A DNA stretch of 64,000 bases from Candidatus Omnitrophota bacterium (GTDB lineage Bacteria; Omnitrophota; Gorgyraeia; Gygaellales; Profunditerraquicolaceae). The notes beneath the pieces were generated by a model. The model was not told the origin of the DNA, ran no database searches, and was given only the letters and a program-made list of their open reading frames with translations. The translations under genes and the position numbers were made by a program. The first letter of the stretch is position 1. Every line of letters begins with the position of its first letter. Positions 3,366-24,473 of this stretch are shown in pieces. The stretch lies in contig CAWDSS010000010.1 of NCBI GenBank assembly GCA_963805065.1, positions 275,696 to 339,695 on the forward strand, written 5' to 3'.

Positions 3366-3870
3366 ATAACTCGCCCTCTAAGTAAAATTCTATCTTCTCT
3401 ATATAATAGACTGCCTTATATTTTTTACCAAGAGGAGACTTGTATTTAAATTCTTTAGAATTCTTAAATAAGAAAATCTGTTGCTTAAAAGTCAGTATTG
3501 CATTCTCTAAATTACTCACTACGGCCTCGTTACCCTGAATTTCTGCTATTTTTAAAAGATAGACAAGAGCAAATAATTTGGATTTAGAATCCGGGTAATC
3601 ATTGATTAATTTAACGAATGCGTCATTCGCACCACGATAATTTTCAGTATCAAAGTAATATTCTCCTGTTGCAAATAATGCATCCGGCTTATATTTTGAT
3701 TCGGCAGAATTAGCCACAATCGACTGAAAATTCATAAATGCAGAAATAAAATCTCCGGATTTTGCCGCATTGATTCCTTCGTAATATATCTGCTTATCTT
3801 CCTGTGCATATACTGTAATGCCAGATAGAAGAATCAGAAAAAAAATGATACTTACTCTTTTAAATATCAT
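3346..3870 (-). CDS. secreted TPR-like repeat protein
   Basis: 174 aa. It has a signal peptide (IIFFLILLSGITVYAQ) and TPR-like helical repeats of the YbgF/BamD type (GDFISAFMNFQSIV, YKPDALFATGEYYF, GANDAFVKLINDYP). Confidence 0.5.
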   Translation of the reverse strand: MIFKRVSIIFFLILLSGITVYAQEDKQIYYEGINAAKSGDFISAFMNFQSIVANSAESKYKPDALFATGEYYFDTENYRGANDAFVKLINDYPDSKSKLFALVYLLKIAEIQGNEAVVSNLENAILTFKQQIFLFKNSKEFKYKSPLGKKYKAVYYIEKIEFYLEGELFAQISY

Positions 3871-3913
3871 CTAAACGCTCCTTTAGGTTGGCAATTTCTC
3901 ATCGCCGTTCTTG

Positions 3914-4133
3914 CTTTCATTAGTATGGCTATGGAGGCACCAAAACACATTGTTTGCAATCGAAGATTCCAAATCACATTGATTTGGAATAGATTCTGCG
4001 CCACATTGGTGTTAAGATACCAAAACACATTGTTTTGGTATCTCCGTTATCTTTCATTAATGCAGCTATGGAGGCACCAAAATACATTATTTTGGTGCCG
4101 TAGCCTTTTTTCATTAATGAAAAAAGGCTACGG
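3914..4133 (-). repeat. tandem hairpin-repeat array 1 plus tRNA trailer hairpin (downstream of tRNA-Ser GGA)
   Basis: The palindromic units are 3941-3956 (degenerate), 3966-3990 (ATTCCAAATCACATTGATTTGGAAT), 4016-4042 (GATACCAAAACACATTGTTTTGGTATC) and 4073-4099 (GGCACCAAAATACATTATTTTGGTGCC). A degenerate ATTAAT hairpin lies at 4041-4072, and the perfect trailer palindrome is at 4098-4133. Confidence 0.85.
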
Positions 4134-4215
4134 AGAGGCAGGGATTTGAACCCTGGGACCCTTGCGAGTCATACGCTCTCCAAGCGTACGCATTCAACCG
4201 CTCTGCCACCTCTCC
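4131..4215 (-). tRNA. tRNA-Ser (anticodon GGA)
   Basis: The reverse complement reads GGAGAGG TG GCAGAGCGGTTGAATGC G TACGC TTGGAGA GCGTA, then a long variable arm, then CAGGG TTCAAAT CCCTG CCTCTCC G. It folds as a class II cloverleaf by hand. No CCA is encoded. Confidence 0.85.
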
Positions 4216-4637
4216 AAAAAATTTTAATGTAAAATTTTTTGGATTCTGTAGGCAATGCTTAGATTAATCTAAGCATTGCCGCAAGAATCTCCAAAGTCGT
4301 TCGCTATTGCTTAATCAATACTTATCAGTAAACAAATAACAGTTGTTGCTTTATTTATTACGTAGCTTTATATTTTAGGACGCTCACTCCTCATAGGGGA
4401 AACCCGTTTGGTTTCCCCTGATGACGCTCTCCGCCAGCTGTTAGCTTTGGTCGCTGTCACCCCTTCCTTCGCAATTTAGAGAAACATCCTTAAGGGGAAA
4501 ACAATCTTTTCCCCTTAATAATCCCTTTTTTAGGTTTTTAACAACAGAACTTAAAACCACTTCTATTGTCCTGCTTCGCAGGATAGTTGTTAAAAACCTT
4601 TGTCGTTCGCTTGAGCTTTGTTTGTCAGATTACCAGA

Positions 4638-4753
4638 TCCTGAAATACATTATTTCAGGACTAAGATACCAAAACACATTGTTTTGGGACAAAGAAGCCA
4701 AAATACATTATTTTGGCTTCTCCGTGATTTTTCATTAATGAAAAATCACGGAG
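4638..4753 (-). repeat. tandem hairpin-repeat array 2 plus tRNA trailer hairpin (downstream of tRNA-Ser CGA)
   Basis: The units are 4638-4660 (TCCTGAAATACATTATTTCAGGA), 4669-4687 (CCAAAACACATTGTTTTGG) and 4694-4720 (GAAGCCAAAATACATTATTTTGGCTTC). The trailer palindrome is at 4720-4753 (CTCCGTGATTTTTCATTAATGAAAAATCACGGAG). Confidence 0.85.
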
Positions 4754-4835
4754 AGTGGAGGATTTGAACCTCCGGTCACCTTACGGCGACAACGGTTTTC
4801 GAAACCGCCGCATTCAACCGCTCTGCCAACTCTCC
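4749..4835 (-). tRNA. tRNA-Ser (anticodon CGA)
   Basis: The reverse complement reads GGAGAGT TG GCAGAGCGGTTGAATGC G GCGGT TTCGAAA ACCGT, then a long variable arm, then GGAGG TTCAAAT CCTCC ACTCTCC G. No CCA is encoded. Confidence 0.85.
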
Positions 4836-4869
4836 AGATTTATGAATACATACACGACTTTATCTGAAC

Positions 4870-5151
4870 TCAGCCTCTGAATACCAGTAAAAAAACTACT
4901 GAAGAAATAATACAGATTAATCCGACAATAACCCTTTTCTTTAATAGGCTTTCCTGAAAAGTATAAATCGTAGTCTCTAACTTAGGGATCATTATTTTTT
5001 TTAACCCAAAAATTTCTTTACCTAAAATACCTTCTAGTCTTCTGTATTTGTACTCGGCAATTAACAATAATACTCCCACTACAAAAACCACGGGGCTGAC
5101 GAATAATAACGCACTTTTCATGATATCGAAAATCGTTAATTCCGGAGCCAT
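4870..5151 (-). CDS. small membrane protein, two predicted TM helices, unknown function
   Basis: 93-aa ORF with hydrophobic segments ALLFVSPVVFVVGVLLLIA and VIVGLICIISSVVFLLVF. It lies between two tRNA-Ser genes. Confidence 0.45.
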   Translation of the reverse strand: MAPELTIFDIMKSALLFVSPVVFVVGVLLLIAEYKYRRLEGILGKEIFGLKKIMIPKLETTIYTFQESLLKKRVIVGLICIISSVVFLLVFRG

Positions 5152-5192
5152 TCTATACCTCCTTGCTTTGCTTGCGGATTAAAAGGTATCGA

Positions 5193-5350
5193 GGCACTGA
5201 AATACATTATTTCAGTTACGCAATAGGCACCAAAATACATTATTTTGGGTCTCAATAGGTACTAAAATATATTATTTTGGGCAACGATAGGCACTGAAAC
5301 ACATTGTTTCAGTGCCACCGCTTAGCTTCATTAATGAAGCTAAGCGGTGG
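5193..5350 (-). repeat. tandem hairpin-repeat array 3 plus tRNA trailer hairpin (downstream of tRNA-Ser TGA)
   Basis: Four units with a 32-33-nt period start at 5193, 5226, 5258 and 5290. One example is GGCACTGAAACACATTGTTTCAGTGCC at 5290-5316. The trailer palindrome is at 5315-5350 (CCACCGCTTAGCTTCATTAATGAAGCTAAGCGGTGG). Confidence 0.85.
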
Positions 5351-5433
5351 GGGTGAGATTTGAACTCACGGAGGGGAGAAATCCCCTCAACAGTTTTCAA
5401 GACTGCCGCTTTCAACCGCTCAGCCACCCCACC
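5345..5433 (-). tRNA. tRNA-Ser (anticodon TGA)
   Basis: The reverse complement reads GGTGGGG TG GCTGAGCGGTTGAAAGC G GCAGT CTTGAAA ACTGT, then a long variable arm, then GTGAG TTCAAAT CTCAC CCCCACC G. No CCA is encoded. Confidence 0.85.
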
Positions 5434-5543
5434 TATCCTGTTTTTCCCGCATCTATGAATTTTATTGTCGGGCGGGATCCCGCCTGTGATTTAATAGCCG
5501 AGCGGGACAAGACAAGCCCATTCGACCACTCTGGCACCCCACC
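5434..5543 (-). pseudogene. tRNA-like 5' half (class II, Ser-like) interrupted by a 63-nt twin-hairpin module and truncated after the anticodon stem
   Basis: The minus strand reads GGTGGGG TG CCA GAGTGGTCGAA TGG G CTTGT CTTG, then [TCCCGC-N18-GCGGGA][TCCCGC-N21-GCGGGA], then AAA ACAGG ATA, after which tRNA-Ser(TGA) begins. The variable arm, T arm and 3' acceptor strand are absent. Confidence 0.55.
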
Positions 5544-5551
5544 AGAACTAA

Positions 5552-6238
5552 TTATAAGAAAAGCTGTTTAAACACAGCATAAAATATACTCTCAGCCGAA
5601 AGGAATGCGCTGTTGAAGAAATTAACAAAGGAGAACTGTTTAAAAATGAAACTAAGGCTTAGGGAAAGCAGGATTAAATTGACTATAAAAATAAAAGAAA
5701 ACCCGAAAATGTAATTTGCTTTCAGGAAATCATTTTGTTTTGTCCGCACTGACTTTGCGCTGAATACCAAATGTAATGCCACACTGAAACTAAAAATAAA
5801 CAAGAAAAAATAAAAGAAATCTTTGGATTTAAAAATTAAAGAAAGCGGTAAGTACAAAATAAATACAATAATCGCATAGACCGGCAATACGAACGGCGCC
5901 ACCTTTACCAGAGGAGAAAAGAAACTGAATATAACCTCAAGCAGCCTGTGGCCTTTACGATAAATCGCTGCCGGTTCAAACACAAACAAATGTATGAGAA
6001 GAAAAGTTATTATGCCTGCCCAAAAATAACTTTGCGACGGTAAATCTATCAGCCCTAATTCTTTTAAAAATGATACCGATATCGAATATACGAACGGCAA
6101 AAGGCAAACCCCTAAGACAAATTTTATGATTCCAAACAACTTATCGGAAATTCCCGATATTCTGGAACGAGCACCCTCTAAAATCCTGGGACCCTCTTTT
6201 TTAGGAAGTTCTTTCTTAGGAAATTCTTTCTTTTCCAT
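5552..6238 (-). CDS. polytopic membrane protein, unknown function
   Basis: 228 aa. A lysine-rich N-terminus (KKEFPKKELPKKEGP) is followed by about 6 hydrophobic helices. The gene overlaps the serS 3' end by 23 nt. Confidence 0.5.
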   Translation of the reverse strand: MEKKEFPKKELPKKEGPRILEGARSRISGISDKLFGIIKFVLGVCLLPFVYSISVSFLKELGLIDLPSQSYFWAGIITFLLIHLFVFEPAAIYRKGHRLLEVIFSFFSPLVKVAPFVLPVYAIIVFILYLPLSLIFKSKDFFYFFLFIFSFSVALHLVFSAKSVRTKQNDFLKANYIFGFSFIFIVNLILLSLSLSFIFKQFSFVNFFNSAFLSAESIFYAVFKQLFL

Positions 6239-7485: not shown

Positions 7486-8946
7486 TTATCCTTTTATTAC
7501 TCCTAATGGTCGCATCCTGCAGACGCGCTTGGAAATACCCACATTATGCACTACATCCACCACATCATTAATATCTTTATAAGCCTGGGGAGCCTCTTCT
7601 ACAATAGTGCCTCTGCCCGACGCTTTAACAATTATACCCTTAGATTCCAATTCTTTCAACAACATATTCAAGTCAATAGACTTAGTGGCAGATGTGCGCG
7701 ATTTTAGTCTTCCTGCGCCATGACAGGTAGAATAAAAGGTTTCTTCGGCTTTTGCAGTACCTACCAACAGATAGGAATTTCTTCCCATATCTCCGGGTAT
7801 AATCACAGGCTGGCCTGTTTTTTTATACCTCTGTGGCAATGCAGGATGCCCCGGGCCAAAAGCTCGCGTTGCTCCTTTTCTATGCACGCACAGCGATTTC
7901 TCCTTGCCATCAATTTTATATTTTTCAATTTTCGCAATATTATGTGCTACATCATAAATCAGAAACATTCCCAATTTCTGCCACGACGCTCCAAAAATAC
8001 GCTCAAAAGATTTACGCGTAAGATGCATCAGGCACTGACGGTTATTCCAGGCATAATTAGCAGCGCACTTCATAGCTGCCAAATATTGTTTACCTTCGGC
8101 AGAATTTACCGGAGCGCAGGCAAGCTGCCTGTCAGGTACATTGATATTGTATTTCTGAAGGCAATGAACCATGTTCTTTACATATTCATCGCATATCTGA
8201 TAGCCGAAACCCCGCGAGCCGGAATGGATCATCACTGTAACCTGGCCTAGATTAAGCCCGAATTCATCACAACAATCCCTATCGTAAAGTTGATCGATGA
8301 CTTGAACCTCAAGAAAATGATTTCCCGAACCCAGGGTCCCTGATTGCGCCTTTCCCCTTTCATAAGCCCTGTCTGAAACAGCATCGGGATCAGCGCCTTG
8401 TATTGCGCCATTTTCTTCAGTGCATTCCAAATCTTCCTGTGTCCCGTAACCTTTTTCTACCGCCCACTGAGAGCCTTTTACCAGAATTTCTTTTTCTTCT
8501 CTTGCGCTGACCCTGATATCGCCTTTTGAACCCACGCCAGAAGGCACATCAGAAAACAATGCATAAACTAAATCTTTGATTTTATCCTTTATTTCATCAT
8601 ACTGAAAATTAGTTTTTAATAATCTAATGCCGCAATTTATGTCATAGCCGACGCCTCCGGGAGAAATCACTCCGCCGTTTTCAATATCAGTCGCAGCTAC
8701 CCCTCCTATCGGAAAACCATAGCCCCAATGTATATCAGGCATGGCTAACGACGCATTTACAATTCCCGGTAAAAATGCCACATTAGCCACCTGCTGGGCT
8801 GCTTTGTCGTTACGGATATCCTTTAATAATTTCTCGTCTGCATAGATTATCCCCGGAACACGCATACCAGGCTGGTATGACTTAGGTATGCGCCAGCGAT
8901 AATCATCAATTTTCTCTAAAGGTCCATTCCAAACCTCAGACATCAA
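7486..8946 (-). CDS. rtcB: RNA 3'-phosphate/5'-OH ligase RtcB
   Basis: 486 aa with RtcB signature segments: GYDINCG, GSGNHFLEVQ, HSGSRGFG, CHGAGR and PLGVIKG at the C-terminus. Confidence 0.93.
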   Translation of the reverse strand: MMSEVWNGPLEKIDDYRWRIPKSYQPGMRVPGIIYADEKLLKDIRNDKAAQQVANVAFLPGIVNASLAMPDIHWGYGFPIGGVAATDIENGGVISPGGVGYDINCGIRLLKTNFQYDEIKDKIKDLVYALFSDVPSGVGSKGDIRVSAREEKEILVKGSQWAVEKGYGTQEDLECTEENGAIQGADPDAVSDRAYERGKAQSGTLGSGNHFLEVQVIDQLYDRDCCDEFGLNLGQVTVMIHSGSRGFGYQICDEYVKNMVHCLQKYNINVPDRQLACAPVNSAEGKQYLAAMKCAANYAWNNRQCLMHLTRKSFERIFGASWQKLGMFLIYDVAHNIAKIEKYKIDGKEKSLCVHRKGATRAFGPGHPALPQRYKKTGQPVIIPGDMGRNSYLLVGTAKAEETFYSTCHGAGRLKSRTSATKSIDLNMLLKELESKGIIVKASGRGTIVEEAPQAYKDINDVVDVVHNVGISKRVCRMRPLGVIKG

Positions 8947-9352
8947 AAATCACCTCTGCCATCCAGCCGGAATCCGACTGTTCCAATTTCAATTCATGAT
9001 AAGTAGCTGCCTTTATCTCGGTATTTACTTTATAATTTTTCATGTCGCTGCCTGCAACAACAGCCTCCAGGCTATGCTTATCTATTTTGTTTATCTTAAA
9101 ATCGCAAAATATCAGCGCCTTGGCAGCGGATAAAGACAATAATTCATTCAGCCAATTAACAAAAAGCTCATCAATATTATCCGCGCTCTGCTTAATTTGG
9201 ATTTGGTTGACTTTCTTAGCGCAATGCCCTGATTCTTCAGCCATAATGTCAAACATCGCGCGGGCAGTTTTTCGAAATAATTCTTCCAGGCTAGCCGCTG
9301 TTATTTTGACGCCTACGTCTGCGGTATGCTCGATCAGCTCATAATCCTTCAT
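8936..9352 (-). CDS. archease (RtcB activator family)
   Basis: The ORF track starts at 9373, but that ATG lies inside the tRNA-Lys acceptor stem/CCA. The second Met (MKDYELIEHTADVGVKI...) gives the canonical archease N-terminus. The gene overlaps the rtcB start by 11 nt. Confidence 0.8.
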   Translation of the reverse strand: MKDYELIEHTADVGVKITAASLEELFRKTARAMFDIMAEESGHCAKKVNQIQIKQSADNIDELFVNWLNELLSLSAAKALIFCDFKINKIDKHSLEAVVAGSDMKNYKVNTEIKAATYHELKLEQSDSGWMAEVIFDV

Positions 9353-9362
9353 GGGAGGGAAA

Positions 9363-9438
9363 TGGTGGGCCATGTAGGAGTCGGACCTACGACCTTGACA
9401 TTAAGAGTGTCCTGCTCTGCCAATTGAGCTAATGGCCC
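9363..9438 (-). tRNA. tRNA-Lys (anticodon CTT), CCA encoded
   Basis: The reverse complement reads GGGCCAT TA GCTC AATTGGCA GAGC A GGACA CTCTTAA TGTCA AGGTC GTAGG TCCGACT CCTAC ATGGCCC A CCA. It has an unusual C at T-loop position 55. Confidence 0.75.
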
Positions 9439-10031: not shown

Positions 10032-10147
10032 GCTCCCTCCTTTTTTATTATTATAACACTCCTGTTCCAAAATGGTAGGGGATTTTTATAAACAAAAATG
10101 ACTGAACAGTTAAGTCCAGCCCTTAATTATTTGTATCTTGGTTAACT

Positions 10148-10849
10148 TTACCTGCAAGTCATCTTACTCGCATCGCCATCTTCGCTTATAAACCAACTAG
10201 ATTGCCCACCATTCTCTCTTGCCTCAGAACAAAAACCTCCTTTATCATCAGTAAAAACACAATATTTCCAATGCTCCGAGGAAAGTTTCAGACTTAGCTT
10301 ACTATTACAATCTTCCGTAGAATCACAACTTATATAATTATTTTTATCCGACCGTAACATTTTTTCTGCTAGTTGTATTGTTTTTAAACTTGCTTTTGCT
10401 TCCAAGTTTATTAGCTGCTCTTCATTAATCTTGTGATTCTTAATAAAAGACATGAGTTTTTCCGCCTTTTGATAATCTCCTGCCTTATTATATAACTCTA
10501 TCGCCTGTTGCATATTTTCTTGCCCGTCTTTCTCTCTGCCTGTCAAAAAATACGCAGTACCTATAAGGCTATAAGCTAAGGGGTCTTTAGGATTTGATTG
10601 AATAGCTTTTTGGAATTGCTCAATTGCTTCTGGGTATTGTCCACTCTTAAAATATTCAGTTCCTTTATTAAGATACAAGTTAGTTTCGGTATTATCTGAT
10701 GAAGGAATAGTTCTTTGAGATAAGGCTGATTTAGAAAACAAGGTGGTTAAAAATAATCCAACAAATATTGTTGTTATTGTAAGCACAAGTAATATATTCT
10801 TCATTATTTTAGTGTTTGGTCTCCTGTGAGTATTTATACTACTTAACAT
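10148..10849 (-). CDS. signal-anchored TPR protein with Cys-rich pilin-like C-terminal domain
   Basis: 233 aa. It has an N-terminal hydrophobic anchor and TPR repeats (YLNKGTEYFKSGQYPEAIEQFQKAIQSNPKDPLAY...). The C-terminal segment EAKASLKTIQLAEKMLRSDKNNYISC...C...C...C resembles a pilin/pseudopilin head. The start is uncertain (10849 or 10804). Confidence 0.5.
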   Translation of the reverse strand: MLSSINTHRRPNTKIMKNILLVLTITTIFVGLFLTTLFSKSALSQRTIPSSDNTETNLYLNKGTEYFKSGQYPEAIEQFQKAIQSNPKDPLAYSLIGTAYFLTGREKDGQENMQQAIELYNKAGDYQKAEKLMSFIKNHKINEEQLINLEAKASLKTIQLAEKMLRSDKNNYISCDSTEDCNSKLSLKLSSEHWKYCVFTDDKGGFCSEARENGGQSSWFISEDGDASKMTCR

Positions 10850-24401: not shown

Positions 24402-24473
24402 CGTATTAGCTATCAGCTTTCAGTCATCAGCTTTCAGCTGAAAGCTGGCAGCTGATAGCTGAGAGCTAAATTC

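Follow-up and report, generated by a model that had tools for sequence, protein, structure and literature searches.

Hairpin modules at the 3′ flank of tRNA-Ser genes in Candidatus Omnitrophota begin inside the tRNA and match its acceptor end

This work concerns the 3′ flanks of the three tRNA-Ser genes in a 64,000-nucleotide (nt) stretch of the chromosome of a Candidatus Omnitrophota bacterium (contig CAWDSS010000010.1, positions 275,696 to 339,695; hereafter the window, numbered from its first letter). Each of these genes runs into a perfect palindrome (class A), which is directly followed by a hairpin of a second type (class B). Together, A and B occupy the tRNA-Ser 3′ flank in one clade of Candidatus Omnitrophota. 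The A palindromes and their copies in related genomes are a real, lineage-specific structured element, whose function I infer below. It is previously undescribed: the searchable literature, both on Omnitrophota and on the processing of pre-tRNAs, yielded no account of trailers of this kind.

The window has a G+C content of ∼41%, and nearly all of its genes lie on the minus strand. The comparative set consists of 160 loci anchored on the seryl-tRNA synthetase gene serS (cited as L002, L013 and so on; 1.43 Mb including the window), which are not whole genomes, and holds 282 tRNA genes. The tRNA-Ser genes of the window, called with ARAGORN and Rfam and then refined at their ends, and their palindromes are as follows.

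4131–4215, minus strand: tRNA-Ser(GGA), discriminator G at 4131, no encoded CCA.
4749–4835, minus strand: tRNA-Ser(CGA), no encoded CCA.
5345–5433, minus strand: tRNA-Ser(TGA), no encoded CCA.
4098–4133, minus strand: A palindrome 1, 18 + 18 nt with an ATTAAT centre; its first 3 nt, CCG, are C71, C72 and G73 of tRNA-Ser(GGA).
4719–4754, minus strand: A palindrome 2; it opens with the last 6 nt of tRNA-Ser(CGA), TCTCCG, and the tRNA 5′ end GGAGA recurs in its distal arm CGGAGA.
5315–5350, minus strand: A palindrome 3; it opens with the last 6 nt of tRNA-Ser(TGA), CCACCG, and the tRNA 5′ end GGTGG recurs in its distal arm CGGTGG.

An inverted-repeat scan returned all three palindromes with arms of 18 + 18 nt, 100% complementarity and a 0-nt spacer. 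They take in 3 nt of tRNA-Ser(GGA) and 6 nt each of tRNA-Ser(CGA) and tRNA-Ser(TGA), that is, 2 or 5 acceptor nucleotides plus G73, the discriminator in all three genes. The initial annotation of this DNA had described a perfect palindrome beginning inside each tRNA-Ser, with basal pairs made of the last 2–5 acceptor nucleotides and the discriminator, and a constant apex. All of this holds, the apex TTCATTAATGAA being present in the three palindromes, and the refined gene ends confirm its statement that none of the three tRNAs encodes CCA. Its coordinates stand for tRNA-Ser(GGA) and tRNA-Ser(TGA), but the palindrome at tRNA-Ser(CGA), given as 4720–4753, in fact spans 4719–4754 and is one pair longer at each end. 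Exactly three copies of TTCATTAATGAA occur in the 64 kb, with one further copy at 4053–4064 carrying 1 mismatch; the expectation for matches of this type is 0.65, and four were reached in none of 100 shuffles. Perfect palindromes with arms of at least 18 nt are expected ∼1e-6 times per 64 kb, so that the three are far beyond chance. A scan of the whole window for perfect hairpins (stem of at least 10 bp, loop of at most 8 nt) returned 14, of which 13 lie within 3966–5350. The only one outside the tRNA-Ser cluster is found at 24428–24447 (CAGCTTTCAGCTGAAAGCTG).

Class A comprises zero-loop palindromes with an ATTAAT centre, namely the three trailers and an upstream copy at 4251–4280, and class B consists of stems of 9–14 bp around A(Y)AAUGU(R)U. 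Every A is followed by one or more B hairpins, with 2–3 nt shared at the A foot, and behind tRNA-Ser(CGA) and tRNA-Ser(TGA) three or four B hairpins stand in a row. The initial annotation had missed the B family after each palindrome, as well as a hairpin in the 5′ leader of tRNA-Ser(GGA) and a fifth ATTAAT-centred palindrome (4242–4289).

Across genomes, A and the adjoining B form a module of 61 nt centred on ATTAAT, of which 11 copies, from eight Omnitrophota genomes, align without a single gap. The B loop is always 27 nt from the A centre, the A arms measure 18 nt in 10 of the 11 copies, and the B stem within the module is 10–12 bp long. The tRNA end lies 12, 14 or 15 nt from the A centre, and the overlap with the tRNA equals 18 minus that distance; the palindrome thus extends as far as B allows, its length being set by the B spacing and not by the tRNA end. 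In the 61-nt alignment 97.6% of the cells are paired, and 20 of the 26 pairs have changed on both sides, a degree of covariation that was reached in none of 500 shuffles and was not approached by slid registers either. There are 0 one-sided (G·U-type) changes in 286 cells. The loops ATTAAT and AATGT are invariant, while the stems are wholly different between orthologous sites, as illustrated by two pairs in which both members are perfect: CTTAGCTTC at tRNA-Ser(TGA) of the window against CTTGCTTTC in L089, and TGATTTTTC at tRNA-Ser(CGA) of the window against TTTCCTTTC in L008. A covariance model (R1) built from the 11-module alignment has matches only in the window, L002, L008/L094, L013, L036, L086, L089, L099 and L129. 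A GC-rich analogue of the A+B geometry exists in L041 and L135. Here tRNA-Ser(CGA)+CCA runs straight into 2.5 copies, 100% identical, of a 64-nt unit (L041 8081–8243, also L135), with the same two-hairpin geometry as A+B, but with GC-rich stems and UCU loops.

Both position and sequence tie these hairpins to tRNA-Ser. Over the 1.43 Mb, 35 of the 37 class-A (13) and class-B (24) hairpins lie within 300 nt of a tRNA-Ser gene. A hairpin foot reaches at least 3 nt into the tRNA 3′ end in 29/177 tRNA-Ser genes against 1/98 other tRNAs (Fisher p = 2e-5), and a leader hairpin reaches at least 3 nt into the tRNA 5′ end in 9/184 tRNA-Ser genes against 0/94 others (p = 0.03). That the distal arm follows each tRNA's own acceptor end, as first noticed at the three genes of the window, extends to 27 of 27 well-formed tRNA-Ser trailers from many genomes: the arm reads UGGCG(G) opposite an encoded CCA (7 cases), and CGG, CGGA, CGGAGA or CGGUGG where CCA is not encoded (20 cases). 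Leader arms also covary with their tRNA (TTTCC with GGAAA in L053, TCTCC with GGAGA in others). As a rule for tRNAs in general this fails, since the tRNA-Lys, tRNA-Arg and tRNA-Gln genes of the window have no such trailer, and neither do 97 of the 98 non-Ser tRNAs in the related loci. Regarding the tRNA ends themselves, CCA is encoded in 74/184 tRNA-Ser genes against 7/98 genes for Lys, Arg and Gln tRNAs (all loci and the window), and single genomes mix CCA-encoding and CCA-lacking tRNA-Ser genes.

The overlap of the foot with the tRNA is common to different hairpin families. A third family, with a GACAA pentaloop and a stem of 15–16 bp, takes the same trailer position in other genomes and has the CCG...CGG overlap too, and more distant genomes possess yet other trailer hairpins, with CGCCA...TGGCG feet. 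All trailer B hairpins carry AATGT on the tRNA-sense strand, and all GACAA hairpins adjacent to tRNA-Ser carry GACAA on that strand. In their pentaloop and closing pair, the GACAA hairpins of related genomes (for example CUGACAAAG in L007) presumably match the nut boxB of phage P22, which I treat as a lead only; the window hairpins differ from boxB in that their apices are ATTAAT and AAUGU, not GACAA. In L013, two GACAA-type modules (8904–9075 and 10066–10190) flank a methyltransferase gene. These are near-identical over ∼100 nt downstream of the first hairpin, and the stem of that first hairpin is completely different between them; the first module abuts tRNA-Ser(GGA), and the second follows CCCG outside any tRNA.

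The remaining hairpins of the window cluster are listed here.

4073–4099, minus strand: B hairpin with a stem of 12 bp and, on the tRNA-sense strand, the loop AAUGU; 2 nt in common with the foot of A palindrome 1.
4041–4072, minus strand: degenerate unit A′, a decayed copy of tRNA end plus A, apex with 1 mismatch.
4015–4043, minus strand: B hairpin, 13-bp stem; with A′, a second, decayed A+B module.
3905–3990, minus strand: further decayed units, namely B-like 3966–3990, B-like 3937–3957 and A″ 3905–3936, the last homologous to A′.
4213–4243, minus strand: 5′ leader hairpin of tRNA-Ser(GGA), 14-bp stem, ACAUU loop, an inverted B type; it ends in the first three tRNA nucleotides, G1, G2 and A3.
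4242–4289 (perfect core 4251–4280), minus strand: upstream ATTAAT-centred palindrome; L013 conserves its apex and flanks, with covariation in the stem.
4638–4721, minus strand: three B hairpins after tRNA-Ser(CGA), at 4693–4721 (perfect, 3 nt in common with A palindrome 2), 4664–4690 (imperfect) and 4638–4660.
5193–5316, minus strand: four B hairpins after tRNA-Ser(TGA), at 5290–5316, 5258–5283, 5226–5251 and 5193–5219.

For the degenerate copy at 4041–4072 the initial annotation had offered either a lost tRNA or a duplicated trailer, and it is the second that holds: R1 matches 4016–4072 with 35.6 bits (E = 3e-5), and another decayed copy is present at ∼3905–3936. R1 also matches 3965–3991 (24.5 bits). 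The leader hairpin at 4213–4243 is identical in L013 at 31 of 31 positions. As it takes G1-G2-A3 of tRNA-Ser(GGA) and the trailer palindrome takes the 3′ end, flanking hairpins engage both acceptor strands of this tRNA. After tRNA-Ser(TGA), the four B hairpins stop ∼40 nt short of the start of a 93-aa open reading frame (ORF).

I tentatively favor a reading in which A+B would be a transcribed, structured 3′ trailer or intercistronic spacer, serving as a processing boundary able to compete with the acceptor stem, with its symmetry kept by arm copying at the DNA level. The gene setting is as follows. On the minus strand, the order is tRNA-Lys, archease, RtcB, seryl-tRNA synthetase (SerRS, 7484–6216), a 228-aa membrane ORF, tRNA-Ser(TGA), a 93-aa membrane ORF, tRNA-Ser(CGA), ∼400 nt of structured non-coding DNA, tRNA-Ser(GGA) and a TPR/YfiO-like ORF. 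The window SerRS is 59–86% identical to proteins in Candidatus Omnitrophota metagenome-assembled genomes and metagenome contigs, where the gene order is kept. The longer synteny of tRNA-Arg(TCG), tRNA-Lys(CTT), archease, RtcB, serS, membrane ORF and tRNA-Ser cluster (window 9363–9438 to 6216) is likewise kept in most loci. The archease start codon is at most ∼15 nt from the tRNA-Lys 3′ end, so that tRNA-Lys and the archease mRNA are probably co-transcribed. The 228-aa and 93-aa ORFs, checked as candidate processing enzymes, encode hydrophobic membrane proteins with no Pfam match.

The genes around the tRNA-Ser cluster are co-directional and separated by short gaps; this arrangement, with no canonical terminator and no room for a promoter, makes it most likely that the module is transcribed as the 3′ trailer or spacer of pre-tRNA-Ser. 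Other features that speak for the RNA level are the asymmetric loops, which are strictly oriented to the sense strand, the combination of invariant loops, covarying stems and a geometry free of indels among species with ∼20% SerRS divergence, and the position of the hairpins, flush with both tRNA ends.

Constrained folding of the tRNA plus palindrome alone, which leaves aside tertiary tRNA interactions, gives for tRNA-Ser(GGA) −56.1 kcal/mol as cloverleaf with a trailer-only hairpin against −53.2 kcal/mol as full palindrome with an open acceptor stem; the corresponding values are −49.8 and −49.5 kcal/mol for tRNA-Ser(CGA), and −57.5 and −61.7 kcal/mol for tRNA-Ser(TGA). When the leaders and B are included, the minimum-free-energy folds adopt the palindrome, with z-scores of −7 to −11. 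The competition between hairpin and acceptor stem suggested in the initial annotation is thus thermodynamically plausible in prediction, the two states lying 0.3–4.2 kcal/mol apart and the longer context favoring the palindrome.

The proposed course of events starts from the anatomy of A: it is contiguous with the tRNA, its 5′ arm opens with the last 3–9 encoded tRNA nucleotides (the acceptor 3′ strand, G73, and CCA if encoded), and its 3′ arm closes with C (or UGGC) and then the first nucleotides of the tRNA, repeated. Before 3′ processing, the distal arm could displace the tRNA 5′ strand, the two states being predicted to be nearly isoenergetic, and the leader hairpin of tRNA-Ser(GGA) would do likewise at the 5′ end. 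Until cleavage, the acceptor 3′ strand and any encoded CCA would be held in the alternative helix. As for where the RNA is cut, I infer a single endonucleolytic event after G73 or CCA, which would free the tRNA and let the acceptor stem close: an exonuclease should be unable to trim through a helix of 12–15 bp abutting G73 or CCA, which argues for a one-step endonucleolytic cut at the tRNA/helix junction. The initial annotation had this cut exactly at the hairpin base, which does not agree with the full palindrome, where the site after G73 sits 3–6 pairs inside the helix. The downstream RNA would be left with a flush 5′ hairpin, and the freed distal nucleotides could become the foot of B, through the 2–3-nt overlap of A and B. 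In this manner the module would insulate the adjoining RNA from the tRNA, as a structured boundary for processing.

Elements of this scheme have precedents. In Escherichia coli, a hairpin abutting the tRNA 3′ end is removed in one endonucleolytic step by RNase E in proK, proL and proM (PMC5291269), and by PNPase/RNase P in leuX (PMC2811032). The likeness consists in a stable hairpin that starts no more than a few nucleotides from the encoded tRNA 3′ end, with A/U-rich surroundings, so that 3′ maturation is faced with a helix. However, the E. coli hairpins are Rho-independent terminators with U-tracts, located at transcript ends and with no pairing to the acceptor strand, whereas the module described here has no U-tract, lies inside a gene string, includes 3–9 tRNA nucleotides in its stem, has a second hairpin at a fixed distance, and is specific to tRNA-Ser. 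Pairing of a leader with the 3′RCCA of a pre-tRNA inhibits RNase P (PMC9433436). There too, a flank pairs with the pre-tRNA 3′ end, which would alter recognition by processing enzymes, but the leader there lengthens the acceptor stem, whereas in the present genes one acceptor strand would be displaced and its place taken by the trailer, and in some genes by the leader.

In the T-box riboswitch, the antiterminator bulge pairs with the tRNA 3′ NCCA end, thereby sensing an uncharged acceptor end. Where CCA is encoded, the distal arm of the module places 5′-UGGC-3′ opposite 5′-GCCA-3′, the same four-base contact, but it pairs in cis, in the trailer of the tRNA itself and on into the acceptor stem, and there is neither a specifier loop nor a T-box sequence. 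No T-box match was obtained from Rfam in 3850–5650, at the gathering threshold or at E ≤ 5. Among all Rfam 15 families, only tRNAs pass the gathering threshold, the other matches lying far below it and being to hairpin-shaped microRNA models. Another known case is 3′ETS-leuZ, an excised tRNA spacer that acts by base-pairing with small RNAs; the likeness is to a tRNA trailer or spacer that may have a role of its own after processing, its excision being putative in the present case.

Several observations weigh against the processing-boundary reading. The stems have no wobble pairs, and A is symmetric through its very centre, which is not what RNA-only constraint would lead one to expect. The rare mismatches, few in number, show no excess of G·T on the sense strand (∼3 G·T against ∼3 A·C). 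One module copy, L036 9460–9518, is 1.5 kb from any tRNA. The module is present in only 9 of ∼160 loci, and neither L082 nor L109, the closest relatives, has it behind the orthologous tRNA; it is thus dispensable, and tRNA-Ser maturation does not need it. Finally, tRNA-Lys precedes an mRNA (archease) yet has no such hairpin, and a general rationale of protecting the flanking RNA therefore cannot explain the restriction to tRNA-Ser.

Perfect Watson–Crick hairpins without G·U intermediates point to arm-to-arm copying at the DNA level, and the covariation, which had been taken as a sign of pairing to the acceptor end, is for this reason not by itself proof of selection for it. DNA-level events are also indicated by mirrored multi-base and apparent indel changes in both arms, by tandem duplications (the 64-nt unit of L041), by decayed or chimeric half-units (A′ and A″ of the window, units 2–3 of L002, a half palindrome in L005), by near-identical trailers on different tRNA-Ser genes of one genome (L084, L110, L032), by the sporadic presence, and by copies away from tRNAs that retain a tRNA-like foot (AGCGCCA..TGGCGCT in L036; L013 10066–10100). 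Template switching is known to homogenize or extend the arms of quasipalindromes, more strongly in highly transcribed DNA (PMC8604942, PMC3820800, PMC7202029). The perfect symmetry, the mirrored changes and the tandem duplications would arise in this way, by arm-to-arm template switching (quasipalindrome correction), and as the tRNA end is immutable, template switching would write its complement into the distal arm. The simplest reconciliation is that the module is kept for a function that needs its geometry and loops, and that its arms are kept complementary by intrastrand template switching.

The same process, taken further, would make the complementarity to the acceptor end a neutral by-product. 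The hairpin would be kept for an unrelated reason, and template switching would extend the palindrome until it meets constrained sequence, the tRNA on one side and hairpin B on the other, the acceptor pairing itself being functionless. I consider this unlikely. It accounts well for the fact that A reaches exactly to the start of B, with 2–3 nt of overlap, whether the tRNA end is 12, 14 or 15 nt away, that adjoining hairpins overlap their feet likewise, and that the mirrored changes, apparent indel shifts included, come without intermediates; arm-extending template-switch mutations are documented, notably in highly transcribed DNA (PMC3820800, PMC8604942). However, the overlap is also found in unrelated hairpin families and on the 5′ side, the overlaps of up to 9 nt create a predicted near-isoenergetic competitor of the acceptor stem, which would be costly if useless, and the location at tRNA-Ser is left unexplained.

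A further alternative, doubtful but to be taken somewhat more seriously, is that of a selfish or mosaic DNA repeat acting as single-stranded DNA hairpins or cruciforms, akin to the repetitive extragenic palindromic (REP) sequences and bacterial interspersed mosaic elements (BIME), with any RNA effects incidental. It would have spread through a hairpin-specific enzyme encoded elsewhere, or by gene conversion or unequal crossing-over among the clustered tRNA-Ser 3′ halves. REP/BIME elements (REPIN) of proteobacteria are clustered short extragenic palindromes at the 3′ ends of transcription units, with imperfect, conserved stems, a conserved GTAG-like tetranucleotide in the flank, hundreds of dispersed copies and a link to the RAYT transposase, a Y1 enzyme of the IS200/IS605 type. 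The module resembles them as a set of clustered short palindromes with short linkers at extragenic 3′ ends, in mosaic or tandem arrangement and with fast turnover, and differs in its perfect palindromes, variable stems, conservation of loops only, and siting at tRNA-Ser genes. In favor of such a repeat are the wobble-free stems, the tandem, decayed and chimeric units, the sporadic presence, the near-identical trailers and the off-tRNA copies given above, as well as the switching of the module type between ATTAAT and GACAA among isoacceptors and genomes. Spread by homology among tRNA-Ser genes would also explain the restriction to serine without a serine-specific function. Against this, the elements are not dispersed: all window copies lie within 3905–5350, that is, within 1.5 kb, and elsewhere the same closeness to tRNA-Ser prevails. 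The stems are perfect and vary between copies of one genome, with only the loops invariant, which is unlike copy-and-paste repeats. Moreover, orthologous sites persist across species with ∼77–80% SerRS identity, with invariant loops and indel-free geometry, which implies long-term constraint. No RAYT or other transposase, and no integrase, is present among the 25 of 64 Pfam families listed for 43 ORFs around the module-bearing loci. On dispersal, as sampled in the window and the serS-anchored loci, and on sequence, I thus reject membership in REP/BIME proper.

Recombination at tRNA 3′ ends could produce some of the same patterns, with the modules as att-like core sites where an integrase or a structure-specific recombinase exchanges small gene cassettes. 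This I regard as very unlikely. Variable genes do occur between or after the tRNA-Ser genes of relatives (the 93-aa membrane ORF, a response regulator, a GIY-YIG protein, a methyltransferase, a GDSL hydrolase), the methyltransferase gene of L013 is bounded by module copies of the GACAA type together with tRNA-end-like repeats, motifs such as CCGCCA recur inside arrays, and half-site chimeras are joined at the ATTAAT centre (window 4041–4072). However, the Pfam families listed include no integrase in any locus, L013 among them, the arm sequence is not conserved and so offers no sequence-specific recombinase binding, the register to the tRNA end takes three positions, and the symmetric ATTAAT centre gives no directionality. 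Integron attC sites are a poor match, the hairpins being perfect with no extrahelical bases, the feet being CCG...CGG or CCGCCA...TGGCGG, and GTT/AAC, where present, being in the opposite order to the attC core sites R″(RYYYAAC)...R′(GTTRRRY); a resemblance by eye to attC and dif does not survive a comparison of the order and spacing of the symmetric elements. Viral contigs lend no support either: the pattern CATTAATG...AAYAATGTRTT has at least 120 matches in them, and the first 120 are all due to chance, with palindrome arms around CATTAATG of at most 8 nt and neither a B hairpin nor a genuine module in any. BLAST of the tRNA plus flanks against phage and plasmid collections returned the tRNA body only.

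Among the variable genes, small GIY-YIG homologues adjoin, or lie between, tRNA-Ser genes in 6 of the 8 loci that have one (L095 8039–8281, L100 4040–4279, L024 8105–8362, L021 2910–3101, L045 8027–8245, L153 2865–3098), and one lies by tRNA-Lys; the window has none. In L002 (8126–8653), a 350-nt insert encodes an 88-aa GIY-YIG nuclease (Pfam E = 2e-16) and is flanked by a direct repeat of ∼90 nt, in which the leader of tRNA-Ser(GGA) is joined to the first 18 nt of the gene; this indicates that the tRNA head was duplicated by the insertion. The small GIY-YIG gene is possibly mobile, in the way of homing genes, with the tRNA-Ser cluster as its target.

The position after tRNA genes is also that of a terminator, and the hairpins might be ordinary transcription signals, either factor-independent tRNA terminators or a promoter embedded in A and B for the downstream gene. 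I hold this to be most improbable. Two modules do contain ATGAAA-17 nt-AATAAT across the right arm of A and the B loop, and the fixed A–B spacing would fit −35 and −10 elements, but promoter-like matches are at chance level (6 against 4.5 ± 2.5 in shuffles), other genomes have different hexamers (ATTTAA, ATCCAG) at the −35-like position, and B arrays occur without A. On the sense strand no A or B hairpin is followed by a U-tract, and no terminator-like site is found at any of them, matches to B hairpins being antisense only; A is directly followed by B, and B by mixed sequence. Canonical terminators with a GC stem and T-run exist elsewhere, for example after tRNA-Lys in L009, L010 and L066.

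Beyond the processing-boundary reading, a bolder proposal, which I rate as improbable to about the same degree as the neutral by-product, is that leader and trailer hairpins form an isotype-specific maturation lock on pre-tRNA-Ser, or that the conserved loops are sites of a hairpin-specific DNA enzyme targeting tRNA-Ser ends. As a lock, strand displacement would part both acceptor strands and hide the encoded CCA, until a loop-specific factor or endonuclease acting on A+B frees the tRNA; the spacer RNAs could possibly go on to act as arrays of hairpins that bind proteins.

Bacterial tRNA trailers are usually taken as disposable, either unstructured or a terminator. Here, the trailer, and sometimes the leader too, is a conserved hairpin module of fixed geometry, and in several species of an uncultivated phylum it is a single tRNA isotype whose acceptor strand it pairs with. 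A functional role of this pairing would imply isotype-specific control or an unusual maturation of tRNA 3′ or 5′ ends, with endonucleolytic release from a helix and CCA hidden until then, and the module would also found a class of structured spacer RNAs linked to tRNAs. Should the palindromes instead be homogenized at the DNA level, they would be an unusually clean natural case of template switching that creates apparent RNA "covariation" with a conserved gene end, and a caveat for RNA discovery based on covariation. In either case, the 61-nt module and its covariance model provide a handle for searching metatranscriptomes and complete genomes of Omnitrophota, the latter having been published of late (bioRxiv 10.64898/2026.06.07.730766).

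Two further identities were considered and rejected. The hairpins are not a CRISPR array, as those of the window differ from each other, and the L041 repeat is a plain tandem repeat with no unique spacers. Nor is ATTAAT avoided in the window as a restriction site might be (42 observed, 41–56 expected).

The ∼400-nt spacer between tRNA-Ser(CGA) and tRNA-Ser(GGA) (window 4285–4665, minus strand) is strongly structured (z = −6), with several perfect hairpins (4395–4419, 4490–4518, 4532–4599) and no Rfam match. Some of its motifs (CUCAAGCGAACGACAAAGG) are akin to the GACAA-type modules known from other genomes, and a boxA-like UUUAACAA is present as well. Upstream of tRNA-Ser(TGA), at 5507–5543 (minus strand), lies a 36-nt copy of the 5′ part of that tRNA (acceptor 5′ strand, D-arm and start of the anticodon stem; ∼80% identity), ∼70 nt upstream of the real gene and just past the stop of the 228-aa ORF. 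It looks as if an earlier insertion or duplication at the head of the tRNA had left it behind. A hidden fourth tRNA at this place was rejected, as only this copy is present and the region 5434–5556 has no significant fold (z = −0.56).

Other trailers recur in the related loci. After CCA-encoding tRNA-Ser genes, many loci have a different conserved trailer, a long GC-rich hairpin GGAGCGC...GACGGAAG-NNNN-CTTCCGTC...GGCGGCGCTC followed by TTTTAAAATAA (for example L093 9116–9190, L097 7610–7690, L108 10847–10925, L116, L134, L040, L042, L046 and L065), which resembles a true terminator and has a hairpin nested in it. One more trailer that recurs starts with GTGATACCAATTCGAACC. A linker motif, CCGCCACC(C)TTAAT, follows B-like hairpins in L002 (8770–8900), L036 (8010–8100) and L041, and resembles the 3′ end of tRNA-Ser with CCA plus CC; TGGCGGA, found ahead of a B hairpin, can pair with either the upstream tRNA end or this downstream motif. 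Lastly, directly after tRNA-Arg in L002, L013, L034 and L036, there is a T-arm-like end (…CTCGGGAT(T)CCGCC…GGGCGGA…GTTGCRGGTTCRA…) with no ARAGORN call, which may be an unusual or degenerate tRNA-like gene.

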